7,878 nucleotides of DNA from a virus (Duplodnaviria; Heunggongvirae; Uroviricota; Caudoviricetes). The notes under the pieces are model-generated. The model saw only the letters and a program-made list of their open reading frames with translations, made no database searches and was not told the DNA's origin. This document shows positions 1 through 7,878 of this stretch, piece by piece. Location: the IMG/VR virus record IMGVR_UViG_2671180283_000022. One strand, 5' to 3'. The first letter of the stretch is position 1, and every line of letters starts with the position of its first letter. The translations under genes were made by a program, and so were the position numbers.

Positions 1-924
1 TCAGCTTTTCGCCAGAACGGTGACGGCCTTATCGAGTTTTTGCCATCCGCAATAGGTGATTGCCCTGAACGCTGTAGCGTCATTCTGGAAAAGGCTAACC
101 GCCCCTGATTCGGTTTTTATTACCGCCTCATCAGTTGGGGTTATAACCGTGGCTTCAACGTTAATAATCAGCTTTTGAGCGTCTATCAGCATCATGCGAT
201 CCGCCTGTTCGCTCACAATTACCGGTATTCTCAAAAGCTCTATCTGCCAGAACTCAGCATCAGTAAGCTGTAAGGCGTTTTCTACGGGCAAGATTAGCGA
301 CGACGTGGAAAGCGTGTTACCGTTCGCTATGTGCTTTTTGAAAAGCTCTATGAAGTTTTCGGCCTCATCAGCACCATTAAGCACGCCCTCAGGGGATACG
401 CCAGCCACCTCCTTGTCACTGGAAAGAAATTTTTTATCTATTTCTTTCACCGATTCCGATGTGATCAAGTCTCTGATCGCTGAATTGGTGCCAGGGGTGC
501 TAAATTTGATTAGCTCGTTATTCAGCATCACAATAGCGCCAAGTTTGCACAGTTTTAGCGCGCTTTCGTTTACTTCTCCCTCTTTGACAGGGATTTCTTC
601 GGCTTCTTTAAGCCATTTACTACCCTTGCCTGATATTGACTGCAATTTTGCGCCAAACGGAAGATTCAGCCCGCTGCTGATTAGCTTGCCTGGTACAGAC
701 TGCGAAAAAATATACTCACCAAGCTCTCTTACTATCGGCTCTGCCACCAGCGACGGCATATTATCCGTAGTCATTCCGGCAACAATGGATTTTTCAAGAA
801 ATTTCGATACTGCCGGATCATTTCTTTTCGTCATCTCTATAGCGTCTGCATGGCTGAATTTACACGATGTAAGCACGCTGGCGGCGCGAACTGCCGACAC
901 GCCTTTCATGTTTTTAGAAATCAT
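1..924 (-). CDS. phage major capsid protein, HK97-fold family (307 aa, complete)
   Basis: ATG at 924-922, TGA at 3-1; SD AGGAGGAGG about 6 nt upstream of the ATG. Translation shows capsid-family hallmarks: central ...KWLKEAEEIPVKEG...KLGAIVMLNNELIKFS... and C-terminal ...SLFQNDATAFRAITYCGW.... Assigned from motif memory, not a search. Confidence 0.6.
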   Translation of the reverse strand: MISKNMKGVSAVRAASVLTSCKFSHADAIEMTKRNDPAVSKFLEKSIVAGMTTDNMPSLVAEPIVRELGEYIFSQSVPGKLISSGLNLPFGAKLQSISGKGSKWLKEAEEIPVKEGEVNESALKLCKLGAIVMLNNELIKFSTPGTNSAIRDLITSESVKEIDKKFLSSDKEVAGVSPEGVLNGADEAENFIELFKKHIANGNTLSTSSLILPVENALQLTDAEFWQIELLRIPVIVSEQADRMMLIDAQKLIINVEATVITPTDEAVIKTESGAVSLFQNDATAFRAITYCGWQKLDKAVTVLAKS

Positions 925-1075
925 CTTCTTCCTCCTCCTGGAAGCACGGGTTTAGTGTTTCGTGAAAATATGGCATCAGAACAGCGGCGGCCTGTAACCG
1001 TATTTCGGTCGACTGCTGCTTGTCGTTCATGATTTCCGTGAGTACATCAATAGGGTCTGTGATGTATTCGCTCAT
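914..1075 (-). CDS. small hypothetical protein (53 aa, acidic C-terminus), not in the ORF track
   Basis: ATG at 1075-1073 with GAGGT SD about 9 nt upstream; translation MSEYITDPIDVLTEIMNDKQQSTEIRLQAAAVLMPYFHETLNPCFQEEEEDDF; fills the terS-capsid gap and overlaps the capsid start by 11 nt in another frame. Confidence 0.3.
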   Translation of the reverse strand: MSEYITDPIDVLTEIMNDKQQSTEIRLQAAAVLMPYFHETLNPCFQEEEEDDF

Positions 1076-1086
1076 AGTTCGCTACC

Positions 1087-1575
1087 TCAGTGTTTTAAGT
1101 CTGTTGGTGGCTTAGGGATGGGGAACCGATTTGAGTAGACACTAGCGGCATTGAGTTTTTTAACCTCTTTTTTCCCAATGCTGCCGATCTTGCGGTGGGT
1201 GAACTGGGCCAGCTTAAACGCGGCATCTAAAGCCAGTTTTGGATCTGTGTCCATGTTGTCAATCAGTATCCTGCCCATTGCTTTGATGGGGTCGGGTAGG
1301 CCGTTATCCATCATCTCAATGGTGTTAATTGATGCCCGTTCCGGTGTAACTTTTTCGGTAACTTTCTTTGTAACTTTTTTCGGTTTTGTAACCTGAAAAG
1401 TTACATCAGAAGTTACAGCCTTAAGATACTTTTTCACCTCAGGATCGTTGGATAGCTGCCAGCCTTTAACCCTTGCGGTCTTTTCGCTGTATCCCGCATG
1501 TATAGCGGCTTCCGTGGGATTTGCGCCCCTTGATAACGCATCAGCAAACCGCTTTTTTTTGGTCGTTAATGCCAT
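1087..1575 (-). CDS. terS: terminase small subunit (162 aa from ATG 1575; alternative upstream in-frame start at 1707 gives 206 aa)
   Basis: N-terminal ...KKRFADALSRGANPTEAAIHAGYSEKTARVKGWQLSNDPEVKKYL... matches the HTH DNA-binding domain of phage small terminases. ATG 1575 has a GAGG SD about 9 nt upstream; the extra 44 aa of the longer form are low-complexity. Confidence 0.65.
   Translation of the reverse strand: MALTTKKKRFADALSRGANPTEAAIHAGYSEKTARVKGWQLSNDPEVKKYLKAVTSDVTFQVTKPKKVTKKVTEKVTPERASINTIEMMDNGLPDPIKAMGRILIDNMDTDPKLALDAAFKLAQFTHRKIGSIGKKEVKKLNAASVYSNRFPIPKPPTDLKH
1346..1416. repeat. GTAAC/GTTAC repeat array inside terS (four direct GTAAC at 1346, 1358, 1370, 1388; two inverted GTTAC at 1400, 1412); candidate pac or TerS-binding site
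   Basis: Read directly from the sequence; 12-bp phasing for the first three copies (gtaactttt). Confidence 0.5.
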
Positions 1576-1596
1576 GCAAAAACCTCGTTTTGAGGG

Positions 1597-1628
1597 GGTG
1601 TAACTTTTCGTGTAACTTTTTTGAAAAG
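1597..1628. repeat. two further GTGTAACTTTT copies (GTAAC at 1600 and 1612, 12 bp apart) in the terS leader, followed by an inverted GAAAAG
   Basis: Same DNA word as the intragenic array, about 250 bp away. Confidence 0.45.
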
Positions 1629-1703
1629 CAAAATTTTCTACGAATGAGACGGGGGGCGGTGTCCGTGGCGATCGTTTTTTTCGCCGGATGATACCCCCCC
1701 CTG

Positions 1704-1865
1704 TCATTGCTCACCGAGTAACGAGATCAGGCCTTCAACTTCATCACTCAGCTTGTTTATTCGTGTCTCAAGCTCTGCGATCTTTTCCATCAATGGCGCT
1801 ATGGTGTCTCTTGTTTCCTCGCCAATGGCTTTAATGATGCTTGCCTCGCGTTCTGTGATAGCCAT
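1704..1865 (-). CDS. small hypothetical protein (53 aa, coiled-coil-like), not in the ORF track
   Basis: ATG 1865-1863 with GAGG SD 8 nt upstream; translation MAITEREASIIKAIGEETRDTIAPLMEKIAELETRINKLSDEVEGLISLLGEQ. Its stop TGA (1706-1704) overlaps the ATG at 1707-1705 (ATGA) of the long terS frame; the upstream gene stops at 1869. Confidence 0.35.
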   Translation of the reverse strand: MAITEREASIIKAIGEETRDTIAPLMEKIAELETRINKLSDEVEGLISLLGEQ

Positions 1866-1868
1866 TGT

Positions 1869-2063
1869 TTACGCCTCACTTGTTGCAATGCCCAGGCGTT
1901 CGCGTAACAGTACGCGCGCAAGATGCCCTATTGTTGGTGTTGCCGCCCTGCCGTAGATACCTGATTCATTCATCCGGCGCACAATATCGAACTGCAACTT
2001 TTTAAGCTCGTTAAGGATTTCATGATCAATCATCACGGTAGCGCTTTGCTTTATCTCTTCCAC
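1869..2063 (-). CDS. small hypothetical protein (64 aa), possibly DNA-binding; GTG start
   Basis: GTG at 2063-2061 with AGGAGA SD 7 nt upstream; first gene after the terminator at 2151-2175; the RHH-like guess rests only on the N-terminal strand-like ...ATVMIDHEILNELKKL.... Confidence 0.45.
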   Translation of the reverse strand: MEEIKQSATVMIDHEILNELKKLQFDIVRRMNESGIYGRAATPTIGHLARVLLRERLGIATSEA

Positions 2064-2150
2064 TTTGTTTTCTCCTGATACTTATCATTGCATAACCAGT
2101 ATTTTCGATAGATTATCATTAATTAACCATCTTTGAAGATATATGAGATC
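2064..2150 (-). promoter_or_regulatory. AT-rich leader and probable promoter region of the packaging operon
   Basis: Lies between a terminator and the first gene of the next operon; contains the ttaattaa palindrome and a minus-sense ATACT-N15-AGTAT inverted repeat; no confident -35/-10 pair identified. Confidence 0.25.
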
Positions 2151-2175
2151 GAAAAAAAGCCGGATTGCTCCGGCT
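2151..2175 (-). terminator. rho-independent terminator (minus strand)
   Basis: Stem agccgga(2158-2164)/tccggct(2169-2175) with loop ttgc; on the minus-strand RNA it is followed by a 7-U tract (plus a7 at 2152-2158); 19 nt downstream of the stop at 2194. Confidence 0.6.
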
Positions 2176-2193
2176 ATGTGCTCACTTCTTCGG

Positions 2194-2430
2194 TTATTCT
2201 CCAGCGCTTTTAACGTTGATGGTTGTTACCTGTTCCGCTTCGGCAATCTCCCGTTCTGTCAGCGTGGCAAAGTTTGCCGCCGCTGTGGTCATGAATGCGC
2301 TTATCAGTTCGGGATGTTCATTCGCGTATCCTTCCCGCGTGTGGCGGTCTATAACTTTGATTGCCACCTTTAAAGCGTGCTCTGTCATGTCTAACGCTTT
2401 ATATTTTTGCTGTGTTCTGTCTCTGCGCAT
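2194..2430 (-). CDS. hypothetical protein (78 aa from ATG 2430; the track ORF extends to 2625 through the iterons)
   Basis: ATG 2430-2428 with GGTGGGGA about 10 nt upstream; translation MRRDRTQQKYKALDMTEHALKVAIKVIDRHTREGYANEHPELISAFMTTAAANFATLTEREIAEAEQVTTINVKSAGE. The upstream in-frame extension is encoded by iteron repeats and judged non-coding. Confidence 0.4.
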   Translation of the reverse strand: MRRDRTQQKYKALDMTEHALKVAIKVIDRHTREGYANEHPELISAFMTTAAANFATLTEREIAEAEQVTTINVKSAGE

Positions 2431-2440
2431 TTTGGTTATT

Positions 2441-2645
2441 TCCCCACCTATACCCACTTTTACTACCCACTTTTCACAATTCCCCACCTCGTTAAAGGCG
2501 TGGGATTTGTAATTTTTATCATGCTGTTTCATAAGGATTTTTTTGCTCCCCACTTTTTGGGGTGTATACAGGTCGAAAAGTGGGGAAGCGTGTTTAAATT
2601 TTGTTAAATTCCCCATGCTCCCCACTTTTACTTCCCACTTTTTAC
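2441..2645. repeat. iteron cluster, putative replication origin
   Basis: At least 8 copies of core (t)CCCCAC(t)TTT: 2441-2449, 2452-2462, 2465-2475, 2481-2489, 2547-2558, 2619-2630, 2632-2645, one inverted at 2576-2586 (head-to-head with 2547-2558), and a partial copy at 2609-2615. AT-rich stretches at 2506-2545 and 2592-2610; directly 3' of the replication gene. Confidence 0.6.
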
Positions 2646-4051
2646 AGTGGCCCTACATCATCGCCGTCAACATAGATAACGCCGTCTTTTTCCAGCTTGC
2701 CCAGCCAGCGCCGGAAGTGCTTCATTTCGTATCCCATCTTCTTCATGTCATCACGCAACAGCGGGATCGTGCACTTGTCGCCGTTCTGTGTGCGTGAACG
2801 GATGCACCCCCATAGCGCGGTATGGTTTTCCGTCTTGTTGCCTGCCTCCTCGATGCGCTCCAGTTCAACGGGTGGGCGCGGCTCATCCACCACCACCAGC
2901 GACGTAATTAATTCGCCGTCAGCGTCGGTAAAAAGCTCCACAACCCGCAAATCATAGGCAGCCTCTTTGAGTTCCTCCGCGTCCTTCATTTTGGTGCATG
3001 AGATGACCAGCGCTTCGCTTCCTGCGTCCTCTCTGCGTATCCTGTATTCAGCGTCCAGCGATGCACGGAATGCACTGGAACCACGCGCGCCCTTTGTTTC
3101 ATCCTTGCCGGAATGGTGAACCACCAGCACCGTGGCCCCTGTGCGTCGTTTCAGTTCGTCACATCCACGGATAAACGCCCCCATGTCACGGGAGTCATTT
3201 TCGTCATTGCCGCCAAAGCAACGCGCCAGCGTGTCCAGAATAATCATTAGAACCGGTTTACCCGTTTCCCGCTCAACCTGGCTGGCAGCAATAACCAGTT
3301 CATCAACATCAAGCGGGACAGCCGGAAAGATGGGACGGTTTACAAGGTAAAGATTTTTCACCTGCTCCCCGTGCACAACCTCCCAGGCTTTTACACGACG
3401 CGGAACGCCAATACCGCCTTCACCAACCACATAGAGAACAGCGCCATGCGCCACCCTGCGGCCTCCCCACTGGCGGCCCGTGGAAACGTGACACGCCCAC
3501 GATCCGGCAAGGAATGATTTATAGGAACCGCTCGCCCCGTATATGCTGCAAAGCGACGATGCCGGAATAATCCCCTTTACCACGTAATCAAGCTGCGTGT
3601 CGTATCCGGTAGATCCAACGCTCATCGGTAGCGTGGTTTTTCGCTGGGGGATTTTTTTCATGACCAGGCTTTCCCCGCGTTCCCATGCCTCCCTAAGCCG
3701 TGGAAGCTGGTCGTTCCATTCCTCCAGCAATTCGAAATTTTCAGAAATTAGCCGCGCCTCCTGGACTCCGGCGATCGCCAGTTTCGTGGCGATGGTTAAC
3801 AGCTGCGGCTCTTCAATATTTCCGGCGCGTATCACCGTCGCCCTGTATCGCCCATCATCAACAATCTGGAGGTTATCCAGTTCGCTTAACTGATAACACC
3901 CCAGATAAACGGGGGGGACTGGATCGCCTGCTTTTTTGGCCTGTGCAATGATGTAGTGCTCTGCAAATGAGTGCGCATCATTCCCCGCGAAAATAATTGC
4001 TTCGGTGTATTTGTCTTTCGGTAATCGTTTTACGTTCGGTGCAAGTTTCAT
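2642..4051 (-). CDS. replication protein with RecA-like (AAA_25/RepA-type) P-loop ATPase domain and an N-terminal domain possibly primase-associated (469 aa)
   Basis: Walker A GASGSYKS, Walker B-like VLMIILDTL, and ...VLVVHHSGKDETKGARGSSAF... typical of RepA-like helicases; ATG 4051-4049 overlaps the upstream stop (ATGA); iterons lie immediately downstream. Confidence 0.8.
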   Translation of the reverse strand: MKLAPNVKRLPKDKYTEAIIFAGNDAHSFAEHYIIAQAKKAGDPVPPVYLGCYQLSELDNLQIVDDGRYRATVIRAGNIEEPQLLTIATKLAIAGVQEARLISENFELLEEWNDQLPRLREAWERGESLVMKKIPQRKTTLPMSVGSTGYDTQLDYVVKGIIPASSLCSIYGASGSYKSFLAGSWACHVSTGRQWGGRRVAHGAVLYVVGEGGIGVPRRVKAWEVVHGEQVKNLYLVNRPIFPAVPLDVDELVIAASQVERETGKPVLMIILDTLARCFGGNDENDSRDMGAFIRGCDELKRRTGATVLVVHHSGKDETKGARGSSAFRASLDAEYRIRREDAGSEALVISCTKMKDAEELKEAAYDLRVVELFTDADGELITSLVVVDEPRPPVELERIEEAGNKTENHTALWGCIRSRTQNGDKCTIPLLRDDMKKMGYEMKHFRRWLGKLEKDGVIYVDGDDVGPL

Positions 4052-4347
4052 TTTTTACCCCTGAATACGTTCAACATCTTTCTTATTTCCTGAATATTGG
4101 CGCGTGCTTTCTCCCTGCTGGTTGGCTTACTGCGGGGCGCTGCCTGTACCAGATAAAAATCACGGTCGAACTGATAAACAGGCATAACGCAATCATATTC
4201 GTAGCCTTCACGGCGGTAAGTTACGCGCCGTTCCTCCACGCCCTTAATCATTACCGTTCCGCCGTACTTATCGCGGTAAATATCCCCGCACATGAATTTA
4301 GTGCGAGTTTTGCCGCTGGCAGTTAAGCCAGGATATTTAAGTTTCAT
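4048..4347 (-). CDS. hypothetical protein (99 aa)
   Basis: ATG 4347-4345 with GGAGAA SD; stop TGA overlaps the ATG of the replication gene (ATGA at 4051-4048); no family recognised. Confidence 0.5.
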   Translation of the reverse strand: MKLKYPGLTASGKTRTKFMCGDIYRDKYGGTVMIKGVEERRVTYRREGYEYDCVMPVYQFDRDFYLVQAAPRSKPTSREKARANIQEIRKMLNVFRGKK

Positions 4348-4352
4348 TATTT

Positions 4353-4580
4353 TTATTCTCCGGTGTGGGGCGCTTTATTATTTTCGTGAATTGCCATCGC
4401 CTTATCCAGTTCATCAATTACAGGCGATAGTAATGTCTGAACGGCGGCAAATATTAATGATGCAGGTTCTCCACCATCTTCCGGCACGTCTATTAACTTA
4501 ATTAACAGCGCATTCATTTCGCGCGCTTTAGTTAATGCGTTTTCAGAGTGGCTTAATACTTCAAAAGGGACTTTATTCAT
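4353..4580 (-). CDS. hypothetical protein (75 aa from ATG 4580; track start is GTG 4583)
   Basis: ATG 4580-4578 overlaps the TGA of the upstream paralog (TGATG); AGGGGG about 10 nt upstream; no family recognised. Confidence 0.5.
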   Translation of the reverse strand: MNKVPFEVLSHSENALTKAREMNALLIKLIDVPEDGGEPASLIFAAVQTLLSPVIDELDKAMAIHENNKAPHTGE

Positions 4581-4744
4581 CACAAAACCCCCTGACGAAT
4601 ACGGGCGACAAAAATCAGATGTGCGTGCGGCAGCTGGGCGCGTGCTTCGCGCTCAGTGGCAGCGGTAACGGTGAATACATCAATGCAGCTGTGGTGGCAC
4701 TGCATAAAGCGCCAGACAAAGTAAGGGCGTGCGGATACAGCCAT
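4580..4744 (-). CDS. small protein, paralog 1 (54 aa), motif FVWRF...TEREAR...ARIRQG
   Basis: ATG 4744-4742 with AGGAG SD 8 nt upstream; translation MAVSARPYFVWRFMQCHHSCIDVFTVTAATEREARAQLPHAHLIFVARIRQGVL. About 50% identical to paralog 2, with synonymous differences at conserved residues. May belong to the Icd-like/Ash-like small proteins of P4-like satellites (unverified memory). Confidence 0.55.
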   Translation of the reverse strand: MAVSARPYFVWRFMQCHHSCIDVFTVTAATEREARAQLPHAHLIFVARIRQGVL

Positions 4745-5030
4745 GTGAAAGGCTCCTACAGTAATTTTAAGGAGTCTCGCTACTACGCTGCTAAACGGGG
4801 TGGCGAGACGTAACAGGGTTAGCAGACTGGCACTGTAGGAACCAGCGAGCGCAAAGGCTCCCCCGTTACGCCCCGCCATAATGCGGGTATGGGTAGGCTT
4901 ACGGACACAAAAAAACCGCATATCGGAATATAAGCGGCTGTCCGCTACAGTATTCAGGCTGCTAAACCCGGTCGCCATGTGGGCGACGGGGGAAGCATAC
5001 AGCCCCGTTATAATTTTTTGCAAGCGGTTT
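4745..5030 (-). other. spacer between the paralogs, open in paralog-1 frame; probable decayed third copy or N-terminal extension
   Basis: No stop in the paralog-1 frame over about 95 codons; contains paralog-like remnants (...MRFFCVRK..., ...FSSVVARLLKI...) and two copies of GCTGCTAAAC plus CTACAGTA leader-like words (4756-4810 and 4945-4992). Confidence 0.25.
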
Positions 5031-5228
5031 TTACGCATGATGTGACCCCTGACGAATACGGGCGGCGAATACAGCAACACAACCGGACGGGCAACGGCTA
5101 CGCGCTTCGCGTTCCGTCCAGGCGGTTACGTGGATGATTTGAGATTCTCCGGCACTCAGGGCCAGAAAACGCCACACAAAGGCCGTTTGTGTGTGTACAA
5201 GGTGTGGTATATGATTTACGGCAACCAT
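5031..5228 (-). CDS. small protein, paralog 2 (65 aa), same family as paralog 1
   Basis: ATG 5228-5226 with AGGAG SD 5 nt upstream; translation MVAVNHIPHLVHTQTAFVWRFLALSAGESQIIHVTAWTEREARSRCPSGCVAVFAARIRQGSHHA; first gene of the replication operon. Confidence 0.55.
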   Translation of the reverse strand: MVAVNHIPHLVHTQTAFVWRFLALSAGESQIIHVTAWTEREARSRCPSGCVAVFAARIRQGSHHA

Positions 5229-5257
5229 AACGGCTCCTAGTTTACGTTGTTGGTTAG

Positions 5258-5301
5258 AAGCCCTGCGAGTGGTAATGACACTTGCGGGGCTTTGCTTTTT
5301 T
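5258..5301 (+). terminator. plus-strand hairpin terminator in the divergent intergenic region
   Basis: 14-bp stem 5258-5271/5279-5292 with 7-nt loop; the two non-Watson-Crick positions are G-U wobbles on the plus RNA but C-A mismatches on the minus RNA; followed on plus by tgctttttt (5293-5301). Confidence 0.45.
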
Positions 5302-5318
5302 AAGTGCTCTTGTGTTAA

Positions 5319-5362
5319 GGTGACCACCTAACAATGGAAAGGCTAATTCAATAGGTGACCAC
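5319..5362. promoter_or_regulatory. direct repeats GGTGACCAC (5319-5327 and 5354-5362), candidate operator in the divergent promoter region
   Basis: Two exact 9-bp copies 35 bp apart, each followed by a yT...AACAA tail, immediately upstream of the Arc-like gene and facing the replication operon; exact hexamers not resolved. Confidence 0.3.
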
Positions 5363-5554
5363 TTGTCAACAATCAAACGCGATAAAAGCCCTAAAGGGGA
5401 CGGGCAATCCCCACAATTCAGAATGCGAATTTCTCCAGAGCTAAAAGAGCAATTCGACAAAGAAGCACAGAGCGACGGCATAAGCCTAGCCAACTGGCTT
5501 AAAGAGTTGGGGCGCACTGAACTAAAGCGGCGCGGCATAGAACCCAAAGGATAA
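5363..5554 (+). CDS. Arc-like ribbon-helix-helix DNA-binding protein (63 aa with TTG start 5363; alternative ATG 5423)
   Basis: ...SPQFRMRISPELKEQFDKEAQSDGISLANWLKELG... parallels the Arc repressor N-terminal strand and helices (PQFNLRWPREVLDLVRKVAEENGRSVNSEIYQRVMESF); AGGTGA SD 4 nt before the TTG; purine-rich on the plus strand. Confidence 0.55.
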   Translation: MSTIKRDKSPKGDGQSPQFRMRISPELKEQFDKEAQSDGISLANWLKELGRTELKRRGIEPKG

Positions 5555-5611
5555 AAACTATCAGCGCCGTGGTGTGAGGTATTACGGCGCATTGCTATGC
5601 AGGACAACACA

Positions 5612-5785
5612 ATGACTGATAAAGAATTGACCAAAACATTATCACCGGCACGGAAAAGACGGCGCAGAAAGATAGAGCATGAATCAGAAAGATTCGCGCC
5701 ATGTGCTTTTGCCCTTGAGCAATTCCTTAAAGAGTATAGGGAAAAGCGCTCATTGCAGGTATGGCAACGAACTGAACCAGACTGA
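5612..5785 (+). CDS. small highly basic hypothetical protein (57 aa from ATG 5612; 62 aa from ATG 5597)
   Basis: AGGA SD 7 nt before ATG 5612; translation MTDKELTKTLSPARKRRRRKIEHESERFAPCAFALEQFLKEYREKRSLQVWQRTEPD; followed by a terminator; no family recognised. Confidence 0.35.
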   Translation: MTDKELTKTLSPARKRRRRKIEHESERFAPCAFALEQFLKEYREKRSLQVWQRTEPD

Positions 5786-5879
5786 TTGCATTGCCCACCA
5801 GCCTGATAGCGGCTATCATCCCCGTGCTTATGTTTGGGATCACATACACATAAGGCGCAGCGGGTTAATTGTTCAGAAA

Positions 5880-5907
5880 GGCGGCTCCATATCGGGGCCG
5901 CTTTTTT
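5880..5907 (+). terminator. rho-independent terminator, probably bidirectional
   Basis: Stem gcggctcc(5881-5888)/ggggccgc(5894-5901) with loop atatc, then tttttt (5902-5907) on plus; on minus it is followed by a weaker UUUCU tail and sits 27 nt past the alpA stop. Confidence 0.55.
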
Positions 5908-5933
5908 CGTGTTTGTCATATCTGTGATACCCG

Positions 5934-6140
5934 TTAAGCAGCCGTTCCGCGTGCTTCCTGTTCGCGTTCTTTCTGCCAGGCCAACACATCATCCTCATAC
6001 CATCCGCGACGGCGTAAACCAACGCGAAAACCCTGCGGAAATTCTCCGGCGTTGATCATGCTTTGCAGCGTGCTGTCTGCCTTGATGTGGATAATTTTTT
6101 TTACTTCCTGGCGAAAGATAATTTTTCTGATTGCTTCCAT
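5934..6140 (-). CDS. alpA: AlpA-family transcriptional regulator / excisionase-like HTH protein (68 aa)
   Basis: ATG 6140-6138 with AAGGT SD; ...IKADSTLQSMINAGEFPQGFRVGLRRRGWYEDDVLAWQ... fits the AlpA HTH pattern (S-T-hydrophobic, G-x-F-P, G-W). Confidence 0.75.
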   Translation of the reverse strand: MEAIRKIIFRQEVKKIIHIKADSTLQSMINAGEFPQGFRVGLRRRGWYEDDVLAWQKEREQEARGTAA

Positions 6141-6158
6141 CGTGATTTACCTTGTGAA

Positions 6159-6247
6159 TCCGGTGTATTCCGGTGACAAATACGGTAAATCATCGGATAT
6201 GGGTAAAAACAGTTCCCACCGTTTTTAAACGGTATACACCGTTTTTT
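6159..6247 (-). promoter_or_regulatory. alpA upstream region with operator-like repeats
   Basis: Direct repeat TCCGGTG at 6159-6165 and 6169-6175 (10-bp spacing); perfect 7-bp-arm palindrome ACCGTTT-tt-AAACGGT at 6218-6233; third ACCGTTTTTT at 6238-6247. Confidence 0.3.
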
Positions 6248-6273
6248 ATATTGATGATTTGAAATGGAATTAT

Positions 6274-6297
6274 AAAAAAAGCGGCATTTCTGCCGCT
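6274..6297 (-). terminator. rho-independent terminator (minus strand) after the small ORF
   Basis: Stem agcggca(6280-6286)/tgccgct(6291-6297) with loop tttc; followed on the minus RNA by a 7-U tract (plus a7 at 6274-6280); 11 nt past the stop at 6308. Confidence 0.55.
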
Positions 6298-6307
6298 TCC
6301 AGGATTG

Positions 6308-6559
6308 TTACCGCCATTTTTTGGGCCTGCCTCCGATCTTCATAGATGCCGGACGTACGACCTTATCAATACTTACCGCCAGATTTCTGGAAGCGCCACG
6401 GGATACCAGAAAATCTACTACCTGTTTTTTTGATGGGGCCGTCGTCCTGTCCTCCGGATCGTAGGTTGACCAAAATTCATGCTGAACCATCAGGGCCAGT
6501 TGCAGCCCGTCGCAATTGCATCTGATATTTTTTTGCATCTTAACGGTTTCATGTTTCAC
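6308..6559 (-). CDS. hypothetical protein (83 aa from GTG 6559, or 76 aa from ATG 6538)
   Basis: Only plausible ORF between int and alpA; basic C-terminus ...GGRPKKWR; weak SD at both candidate starts; followed by a terminator. Confidence 0.4.
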   Translation of the reverse strand: MKHETVKMQKNIRCNCDGLQLALMVQHEFWSTYDPEDRTTAPSKKQVVDFLVSRGASRNLAVSIDKVVRPASMKIGGRPKKWR

Positions 6560-6593
6560 GGCCTTGTCGTTAAATTTGATGCAATTATACGAC

Positions 6594-6629
6594 GGTTTTA
6601 CATGGTTTTCGTAGTTTTTACTGGTTTTC
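6594..6629. repeat. four phased T-tracts (GGTTTT-type at about 6596, 6606, 6615, 6625)
   Basis: Roughly 10-bp periodicity across the int stop (6637-6639), upstream of the small ORF; suggests intrinsic curvature or a UP-like element. Confidence 0.3.
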
Positions 6630-6636
6630 TGTACAG

Positions 6637-7878
6637 CTACACGGCTCGGATACCCCTTTTACCACTGGCGAGGGTTACGCCCGTCGCCGCAGCCTCGACA
6701 AATTCGCCCCACCAGCGCATCAGCACGATGCGTTTTTCTATGTAGTTGCTCCGGTTGTATGCCCGTCTAACTTCGTTGGTGTCGACGTGGGCAAGTGCCG
6801 CCTCTATTACGTCCGGCTCGAATCCTTCCTCGTTCGCTGCTGTGCTGAATATGGCGCGTAATCCATGAGACACCAGCACGCCAGCGAATCCCATACGCCG
6901 CAATGCTGCGTTAGCTGTCTGGCTGTTCATCGGCTGCTGTGGGTCTTTCAGACTTGGGAAAACGTAATTGCGGTGGTGGCTGATTGGTTTCATGGCCTCC
7001 AGCACCGCCATAGCCTGACCGGAAAGCGGGATAACGTGATCCCTGCGCATCTTCATGCGTCCGGCAGGTATCGTCCATTGCTTCGCGTCCAGGTTGATTT
7101 CATCCCACCGCGTTGATGACGCTTCGGCGGGACGGGTTACGGTCAGTAACTGCCATTCAATCAGTAATCTGGTCTGCCGTTCTGTTGCCGATACTGATAA
7201 AGCCTGCATAAGCTCCGGCAGCTGTTCGGGGCGGATTGTTGGCATATGTTTTTTTACAGGTGAGGGAAACGCCTTACGCACATTCATAGCCGGATTGGCA
7301 TCAATCAGCCCACTGTTGGCGGCGTAATCCATTACCTCATTAACGCGCTGTAAAACCCGCTTGAGTGTTTCCAGGTTGCCGCGCTCCTTGATGGGGGTAA
7401 GCACTTCAACGAACCTTCGGGCGGTGAGGGTATCTATTGGCGTGTTGCCGATGAACGGGAATACATATTTATCCAGCGAACGCCAGATGTCTTTAATCGT
7501 GTTGGGGGCCAGATTCTGGCTGATTTTCACCTGGTACCATGCCGCCGCCACATTTTCGAACGTGTTCCCTTGTCTTCGGGCCTCTGTCTCTCTTTTTTGC
7601 CTCTCGTGGTCCTGCGGGTCAGTTCCGGCACTGATTAACGTCCTGTACTCGCTACGGCGTTTTCTGGCATCAGCCAGGGAAACATCTTCAAGCGATCCAA
7701 AACTCAGCAATATTCTTTTTTTGTCCGATGGTCGGTAGTAGGAAAATCTCCAGAGTTTTGATCCAGACGGTTTGACCAGGAGAAAAAGCCCTCCGCCGTC
7801 CTGCAGGGTGTACTCCTTTTGCGCTGGTCTGGCTGCTTTGATCTGCACTGTGGTTAATGGGTGTGTTTTTCTCGCCAT
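6637..7878 (-). CDS. int: P4-type tyrosine integrase (413 aa, complete; ATG is the last triplet of the window)
   Basis: N-terminal arm-binding signature ...LTTVQIKAARPAQKEYTLQDGGGLFLLVKPSGSKLWRFSYY...; C-terminal catalytic region with ...HGLRA... and ...RAYNRSNY... (putative catalytic Tyr); stop TAG at 6639-6637. Confidence 0.9.
   Translation of the reverse strand: MARKTHPLTTVQIKAARPAQKEYTLQDGGGLFLLVKPSGSKLWRFSYYRPSDKKRILLSFGSLEDVSLADARKRRSEYRTLISAGTDPQDHERQKRETEARRQGNTFENVAAAWYQVKISQNLAPNTIKDIWRSLDKYVFPFIGNTPIDTLTARRFVEVLTPIKERGNLETLKRVLQRVNEVMDYAANSGLIDANPAMNVRKAFPSPVKKHMPTIRPEQLPELMQALSVSATERQTRLLIEWQLLTVTRPAEASSTRWDEINLDAKQWTIPAGRMKMRRDHVIPLSGQAMAVLEAMKPISHHRNYVFPSLKDPQQPMNSQTANAALRRMGFAGVLVSHGLRAIFSTAANEEGFEPDVIEAALAHVDTNEVRRAYNRSNYIEKRIVLMRWWGEFVEAAATGVTLASGKRGIRAV

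Follow-up and report, generated by a model that had tools for sequence, protein, structure and literature searches.

An Escherichia coli island with its own small terminase and a capsid homolog is very probably a classical Gram-negative phage-inducible chromosomal island

In SatelliteFinder, a phage-inducible chromosomal island (PICI) is defined by an integrase, a regulator, a primase-replicase, a capsid-morphogenesis component and the small terminase subunit TerS, and in Proteobacteria a capsid homolog is a common form of the capsid-morphogenesis component (PMC10085698). One capsid homolog together with TerS is normal in classical Gram-negative PICIs (PMC10085698; PMC6092414). EcCI11368.1 (8.5 kb) and EcCI11128 (9.3 kb) are entered at yejM-luxR of Escherichia coli in Table S1 of Fillol-Salom et al. 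2018 (PMC6092414). Four E. coli PICIs occupy this site in the published table, and two Shigella PICIs are found at the equivalent yejM-aidA site. Capsid-forming PICIs (cf-PICIs) such as EcCIEDL933, which is approximately 15 kb long, make their own capsids (Alqurainy et al., bioRxiv 10.1101/2022.09.08.507074). Here, we analysed a 7,878-nt stretch of E. coli DNA, IMG/VR record IMGVR_UViG_2671180283_000022 (the window), which an earlier note had read as a P4-type integrase, AlpA and replication island with its own TerS and HK97-fold capsid gene, in the architecture of a cf-PICI. Our data make it very probable that the window is the coding core of a classical Gram-negative PICI of about 8.9 kb from the EcCI11368.1/EcCI11128 lineage, with the life cycle proposed below. 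Since it belongs to a lineage catalogued in 2018 and fits the standard definition of a PICI, this is a kind of island that is already known.

Borders, class and distribution of the island

The window is 100% identical to positions 3047-10924 of its source, an E. coli assembly contig (L005), and its limits are exactly the stop codon of the capsid gene at one end and the ATG of int, which encodes the integrase, at the other. A tRNA scan within the 7,878-nt window found none. In L005, a tRNA-Pro(GGG) gene is located at 2752-2828 (attL), and its end is 219 bp upstream of the int ATG, beyond the window. The other attachment site, attR, is a 16/17-nt repeat of the tRNA-Pro 3' end (CTCTCGTGCGACCAAA) at about 11706-11722, approximately 0.8 kb past the capsid stop codon, and it is followed by the chromosomal genes yejO and then narP. 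Therefore, the att repeats enclose an island of approximately 8.9 kb in which no gene follows that of the capsid protein; the window is the coding core from int to capsid, and the integration site is the 3' end of tRNA-Pro between yejM and yejO. The published median for PICIs is 9.5 kb (PMC10085698).

The position of the capsid gene is the same elsewhere. It was terminal in all 11 contexts, of which eight carry the identical capsid protein (the source contig and seven others) and three are RefSeq genomes; attR itself was read in the source contig. The DNA between the capsid stop codon and yejO is non-coding and 0.45-0.9 kb long, with approximately 0.8 kb in the source contig as compared with about 0.45 kb in the relatives L001, L014 and L015. 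The earlier note had expected an att site and a tRNA beyond position 7878, which is where the tRNA-Pro gene with attL lies. It had also expected portal, protease and the large terminase subunit TerL just beyond position 1, and here the flanks disagree, since non-coding DNA, attR and yejO take that place in 11 of 11 contexts. Neither the window nor the flanks contain tail or lysis genes, as that note had said of the window. A protease for head maturation, a portal, head-tail adaptors or connectors, HNH and TerL were absent from the window and from the flanks of the 11 contexts.

Two repeats near the island ends have to be kept apart. The apparent crossover repeat is the tRNA-Pro 3' end, CTCTCGTGC(C)GACCAAA. 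A second repeat, TTTTAGTTATACGTTT(A/G)GTTATACGG, is present near both ends of the island, at L005 2959-2984 and 11621-11646. The 'att core' of the 2018 table (TTTGTAGTTATACG...) is the repeat near both island ends (repeat family D12), and it looks more like a set of integrase arm-type binding sites than the crossover site. The non-coding tail of the island (L005 10925-11720) also contains three copies of the palindrome CCCGATATGGGGATC(A/C)CCATATCGGG, several direct repeats of 47-72 nt and two copies of GCCCACCAGCCTGAT, the reverse complement of which is also found at window 5793-5807. Short stretches of this tail match internal parts of roi genes from phages. The tail was considered as a cos site and rejected, because it gave no match to a phage cos and only matches of 40-55 nt inside roi genes.

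The island has features of a classical PICI, namely an integrase at one end, a specific att site, a capsid homolog, TerS, no other structural or lysis genes and a length in the range of 8-12 kb. The integrase, AlpA, RepA-like, TerS and capsid genes named in the earlier note were all recovered on the - strand by profile matches, that of AlpA being under the Pfam cut-off. One frequent variant in SatelliteFinder, B#var03, has an unrecognised primase-replicase and terS before the capsid gene (PMC10085698). In the window, terS precedes the capsid gene and a RepA-type helicase replaces the usual D5-type primase, an arrangement that fits this variant.

EcCI11368.1 (O26:H11 strain 11368; L015) and EcCI11128 (O111:H- strain 11128; L014) occupy the same tRNA-Pro site, from yejM to yejO/narP. 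Their gene order is that of the window: int, a helix-turn-helix (HTH) gene, an Icd-like gene, DUF4222, RepA helicase, small open reading frames (ORFs), TerS, a 53-aa ORF and the capsid homolog. Nucleotide identity of the main shared blocks to the window is 93.6-99.7% in L015 and 90-93.6% in L014, and one block of approximately 400 nt is about 82% identical. Between these islands and the window, the Icd/C4 region and the slot that follows repA show mosaic differences. EcCICFT073, the prototype PICI of E. coli, has a backbone in common with the island, consisting of int, AlpA, an opposite-strand YlcI/YnfO gene, an Icd-like gene and DUF4222 (82% identity). In EcCICFT073, as in the island, the replication gene is followed by the origin and then by a capsid homolog, and EcCICFT073 carries a copy of its helper's cos site. 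It differs in that its primase is of the D5 type, its homologs of capsid and decoration proteins are of the lambda E and D types, TerS is absent and Rpp is used, whereas the island has a RepA helicase, a capsid homolog of the HK97/PF05065 type, its own TerS and an HNH-type cos block.

Of 5426 complete E. coli genomes, 220 carry the module from TerS to the capsid homolog in intact form and at 95-99% identity, and the assembly collection has 329 indexed blocks with the identical 307-aa capsid protein. The lineage is common in Shiga-toxin-producing E. coli (STEC). Among the matches listed, many carriers are STEC serotypes (O157:H7, O111), isolates associated with Shiga toxin (Stx) or clinical isolates. 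Outside E. coli, the trio of TerS, an ORF of approximately 50 aa and the capsid homolog is kept at the 3' end of Serratia and Arsenophonus islands that have other replicons. The island of Arsenophonus nasoniae (L020; CP123498.1, about 2000-10950) encodes int, AlpA, a D5 primase, TerS, a 50-aa ORF and the capsid homolog, together with two C4 RNAs. It lies inside a prophage, between head-tail (HK97-gp10-like) genes and tail chaperone/tape-measure genes, and this arrangement resembles the published 'helper-embedded PICI' (PMC10111431).

Packaging genes, capsid homolog and presumed helper phages

Profile searches of 1087..1575 and 1..924 gave TerS and capsid matches above the cut-offs, in agreement with the earlier note. 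The TerS gene (1087..1575, - strand) encodes a 162-aa protein that matches Pfam Terminase_2 at 41.6 bits (cut-off 26.1) and phrog_641 with an E value of 3e-43. A comparison of this TerS with solved structures found no sequence match. Directly upstream of terS is a helper-like cos block of 80 nt (1622..1701, - strand), presumed to be cosN, which is 85-94% identical over 64-80 nt to 94 phage records. The matches listed are all at or adjoining the HNH-terS intergenic region of phages. The record of phage Lys8385Vzw begins inside the block, at the equivalent of window ~1649|1648. This start point suggests that 1622-1701 contains the cosN cleavage site.

A cluster of AAAGTTAC repeats (1346..1619) lies 3' of the cos block and within terS. 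Six exact copies were found against 0.25 expected, all of them in 1346-1619, and they are presumed to be island-specific TerS-binding (cosB-like) sites. Where the island has these repeats, the phage carries six copies of TGTTAAC. The simplest reading of these sequences is that cosN is common to island and phage and that the TerS-binding sites have been switched.

Between terS and the capsid homolog, a 53-aa micro-protein with an acidic tail is encoded at 914..1075 (- strand). It matches positions 89-125 of phrog_641 (E 3.5e-7) and resembles the central helices of TerS; its similarity to TerS cores is weak. The islands of Serratia and Arsenophonus have counterparts that are 36-44% identical and are also located between terS and the capsid homolog. 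Plain BLASTP of the micro-protein against phage TerS gave no alignment. Because similarity was seen solely at profile level and with a small database, the name 'mini-TerS' is used here as a hypothesis. Like Rpp or Ppi, the micro-protein could bind the TerS of the helper or poison it.

The last gene of the island (1..924, - strand) encodes a 307-aa homolog of HK97-fold major capsid proteins. It scores 29.7 bits against Pfam PF05065 (Phage_capsid; cut-off 24.2) and 28.0 bits against TIGR01554 (major_cap_HK97; cut-off 27.5), and in tblastn 94-97% of its length was covered by alignments to phage capsid proteins. An AlphaFold2 model built on 16 homologs had a mean predicted local distance difference test (pLDDT) score of 65.6. 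In a Foldseek search of this model against the PDB, the matches at probability 1.00 were exclusively HK97-fold capsids and encapsulins, including the HK97 prohead, the 80alpha/SaPI1 capsid and the SaPIbov5 procapsid. The presumed helpers have a 645-aa protease-capsid fusion protein, and the homolog aligns end to end with its residues 291-633 at 24% identity. It thus corresponds to the capsid domain without the protease or scaffold. When 1.84 billion proteins were searched by profile, the next-best matches included many of approximately 630-670 aa, which were hit over their C-terminal ~300 residues alone. Judged by these comparisons, the capsid family sits next to the protease-capsid fusion proteins of the helper layout.

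One group of lambdoid phages has TerS proteins with 46-47% identity to that of the island. The group includes Stx1a-, Stx2a- and Stx2c-converting phages, PPompW, BP-4795, 2851, YYZ-2008 and JLK-2012. In these presumed helpers, the head module has the order HNH, intergenic (cos) region, TerS, TerL, 645-aa protease-capsid fusion and portal. The homologies of TerS (47%) and of the capsid protein (24%), together with the cos block, point to the same group, and the helpers are likely to be lambdoid phages of the Stx type whose head module is HNH-TerS-TerL-protease/capsid. Of the complete E. coli genomes, 1284 contain the helper-type HNH-TerS-TerL module, in two copies at the median and in up to eight. 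At least one genome, that of strain 6817, is among the matches listed for both the island module and the helper module. Since the presumed helpers include Stx-converting phages, the island could influence Stx phage yield and gene transfer in these pathogenic E. coli.

Proposed life cycle and rival explanations

In the proposed life cycle, a helper of the lambdoid Stx-type group would turn on alpA, and the island would be excised by Int and AlpA and replicated by RepA from the iterons. The island TerS would then bind the AAAGTTAC repeats and recruit the helper TerL and HNH to cut the helper-like cosN, and heads made of helper proteins would take up the island DNA. By analogy with SaPIbov5 Ccm, the capsid homolog most likely co-assembles with the helper capsid protein and alters the size or composition of the head; this is the least certain step. 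Ccm (PMC5052747; PMC8569155) and the homolog of PmCI172 are likewise satellite-encoded HK97-fold homologs of a helper capsid protein. The satellites that carry them are packaged by cos, as is presumed for the island. No sequence relationship to these two proteins is detectable beyond the fold, and the presumed helper capsid of the island is a protease-capsid fusion, unlike in the case of Ccm and PmCI172. PmCI172, a PICI with a capsid homolog, produces small capsids. Ccm is reportedly part of the SaPIbov5 procapsid.

Several points weigh against this scheme. Induction, the cos cut, the interaction of TerS with TerL and HNH and the incorporation of the capsid homolog are all inferred from sequence. 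The assignment of cosN draws on sequence conservation and on the start point of one phage record, and the AlpA match falls short of the Pfam cut-off (17.6 vs 21 bits). Co-assembly is not assured because the capsid homolog is just 24% identical to the presumed helper capsid. In EcCICFT073, the one E. coli PICI in which this was put to the test, deletion of the capsid homolog (lambda E type) left interference unrelieved, and full-size heads were used (PMC6092414). The window capsid homolog and c1499 of EcCICFT073 are unrelated in sequence (PF05065 vs PF03864), and therefore the negative c1499 knockout data bear only loosely on the window protein. Literature searches found no experimental study of the lineage, EcCI11368.1 and EcCI11128 having been published as catalogue lines.

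TerS, the micro-protein, the scaffold-less capsid homolog and the helper-identical cosN with switched repeats may together make up a compact 'head-hijack cassette', a tentative reading that we consider rather doubtful. Such a cassette would at the same time re-target the helper TerL and HNH to the island, poison the helper TerS via the micro-protein and build smaller hybrid heads in which subunits of the helper protease-capsid fusion are combined with the capsid subunit of the island. If true, it would be a Gram-negative counterpart of Ccm that acts on a fusion-type capsid, within a known satellite family.

The earlier note had favoured a cf-PICI that makes its own small capsids and borrows helper tails, with portal, protease and TerL just outside the window. 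A capsid homolog and TerS on one strand without tail or lysis genes are consistent with this, and the presumed helpers come from the HNH-dependent cos group that cf-PICIs exploit. EcCIEDL933 shares the int-alpA-rep front end, the capsid gene and terS with the island, and it exploits phages with HNH, TerS and TerL packaging, to which the presumed helpers of the island are similar. However, EcCIEDL933 encodes a protease, portal, head-tail connectors, HNH and TerL, and the island is without all of these; six defining components of cf-PICIs are missing from it, the capsid gene being present and tail and lysis genes absent. Its length is 8.9 kb as against about 15 kb. The gene order of proteobacterial cf-PICIs is capsid-protease-portal-connectors-hnh-terS-terL (bioRxiv 10.1101/2022.09.08.507074), whereas terS precedes the capsid gene here. 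The capsid gene is last, and the flanks end in attR and chromosomal yejO. This refutes the cf-PICI reading, to which we assign almost no probability; what stands of it is a satellite island with its own TerS and a capsid homolog. For a small island to be called a cf-PICI, it is thus not enough that it has a capsid gene and TerS, and the flanks are decisive. A P4-like satellite that remodels P2-type heads is equally hard to credit. The island shares with such satellites a P4-type set of integrase domains and an AlpA-like gene, and it also has Icd-like ORFs and a regulatory RNA of the C4/CI type, but no match to sid, delta, psu, epsilon or the alpha-primase was found in libraries that were not confirmed to hold Sid, Psu and Delta models, and TerS, the cos block and the capsid homolog point to lambdoid HNH-cos phages and not to P2.

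A decayed remnant, either a defective prophage or a truncated cf-PICI that has lost most head genes and become immobile, would account for a lone capsid gene that is unable to make heads without scaffold or protease. Damaged copies also exist: terS of L003 is interrupted by an insertion sequence (HTH_Tnp_1/rve transposase), and L014 and L015 have frameshifted or partial Icd-like genes. Against decay, both att ends are intact, as are int, the origin, terS and the capsid gene. The wide conservation of the module and of the identical capsid protein, and the trio that ends islands with different replicons in other genera, argue for selection on a compact architecture and not for random decay, so that a remnant is improbable. 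It is also conceivable, with a limited chance, that the island is the same PICI and that the capsid homolog is an anti-helper decoy, a scaffold-less subunit that poisons helper procapsids and serves interference or population-level defence. The homolog has no protease or scaffold part, which the helper capsid protein has in cis, and interference with the assembly of helpers is common among PICIs. A relative in Klebsiella aerogenes (L018, 4084-13512) has an AAA_25 replicase and retains the capsid homolog without a recognisable TerS or 50-aa ORF, which indicates that the homolog can persist without a packaging function. However, the tight conservation beside terS and the cos site fits a packaging role equally well, a PADLOC defence-gene scan of 10 ORFs gave no match, and the precedents of Ccm and PmCI172 speak for a part in the head. 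As a probable classical PICI, the island is still of interest for its presumed cos mimicry, its TerS-like micro-protein and its C4 RNA, and for the part that capsid homologs play in Gram-negative PICIs. In L018, the capsid gene is followed by a gene for a 765-aa protein with no Pfam match on record, possibly an accessory or defence gene.

Integration, regulatory and replication genes

All family-supported long ORFs of the window are on the - strand. The P4-type tyrosine integrase (413 aa; 6637..7878, - strand) matches Pfam Arm-DNA-bind_3 (81.6 bits), Phage_int_M (88 bits) and Phage_integrase (101.5 bits), all above the cut-off. A small ORF between int and alpA (6308..6559, - strand), where relatives are annotated with a 76-aa hypothetical protein, had no family match in the profile libraries scanned. 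The AlpA-like HTH protein (68 aa; 5934..6140, - strand), the Pfam score of which was given above, matches phrog_66 and phrog_2790 ('excisionase and transcriptional regulator') and is 28% identical to the AlpA of EcCICFT073 (E 2e-7). It is presumed from these matches to be a helper-responsive activator and excision cofactor.

On the opposite strand, a gene pair (5363..5785, + strand) encodes a YlcI/YnfO Arc-like protein of 63 aa (5363-5554) and a 62-aa protein (5597-5785). The pair matches phrog_228 ('Arc-like repressor', E 5e-7) and phrog_21027 (E 1.6e-15), and RefSeq annotates YlcI/YnfO at the matching position in relatives and in EcCICFT073. The YlcI-like protein is conserved across genera and is 42% identical to its homolog in the Klebsiella island; BLASTP found no similarity between it and the DUF3950 protein that adjoins HNH in phage. 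A 221-aa ORF on the - strand (5254-5919; 316 aa in L002), which some gene finders call, was judged probably spurious because its N-terminal part is unconserved across genera. Since this part of the long ORF is not conserved and the YlcI-like gene antisense to the ORF is, the regulator pair diverges from the main operon, and it may encode a repressor. Gram-negative PICIs have been described as transcribed one way only, and the divergent pair contrasts with this description. A terminator-like hairpin (5875..5907), with a 14-pair stem and then a T run, is located between the convergent alpA and + strand pair; it was found as a consensus match alone.

Two small Icd-like ORFs follow on the - strand. 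The first (5031..5327) matches NCBIfam NF033153 (phage_ICD_like) at 63.5 bits. The second (4580..4740) matches it at 51.4 bits, and the match is limited to residues 121-163 of a 166-aa ORF. This mechanically called ORF (4580-5080) over-extends, and a C4-type antisense RNA sits in its N-terminal part (4796-4883, - strand; Rfam RF01695, 71.5 bits, gathering 45). An a1/b1 target motif of the C4 RNA is found at 4951-5000 (- strand; RF03163, 45.5 bits, just under the gathering threshold of 46.7). With the RNA and its target inside the over-called ORF, the layout resembles that of P1 immI, which consists of targets, C4 RNA and an icd-like ORF. The immI loci of P1 and P7 (c4 RNA-icd-ant) likewise have a C4 antisense RNA, an a1/b1 target motif and then an Icd-like ORF. 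Unlike them, the island has no ant gene, and its replication and packaging genes lie downstream instead. The C4 module may serve as an RNA switch through which the island is held silent. The C4 RNA is kept in the E. coli relatives L001, L009 and L015 and in L020 of Arsenophonus, and it was not detected in L014, L016 and L018. Further downstream on the - strand are a 76-aa ORF (4353..4583; phrog_2196) and the gene for the DUF4222 protein (4048..4347; Pfam DUF4222, 79.5 bits), the EcCICFT073 homolog of which was described above.

The RepA-family helicase or replication initiator (469 aa; 2642..4051, - strand) matches Pfam AAA_25 at 144.6 bits and phrog_2850 over its full length, with weaker matches to primase/helicase PHROGs. 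This RepA-type AAA_25 helicase occupies the place of the D5-type primase usual in PICIs. The replication origin (2431..2653), directly 3' of repA, consists of two iteron sets (AAAAGTGGG[A/G]AG...) around an AT-rich stretch (repeat families D4 and D8). Six copies of AAAGTGGG are present where 0.36 would be expected, and they are confined to 2453-2641, which bears out the iteron origin proposed in the earlier note. The layout matches that of published E. coli PICI origins (PMC6092414, Fig. 2 legend).

An 81-aa ORF (2194..2439, - strand; phrog_1231) lies in a variable slot after the origin. In several relatives (L001, L002 and L006-L009), this slot (window 2181-2208) holds an extra gene for a 136-aa single-stranded DNA-binding protein, which the window does not have. 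Two conserved ORFs on the - strand, of 64 aa (1869-2063) and of 53 aa with a coiled-coil-like sequence (1704-1865), lie upstream of the packaging module. ORFs of 60 and 57 aa at the same position in the Klebsiella island look similar to this pair, as judged by eye alone.

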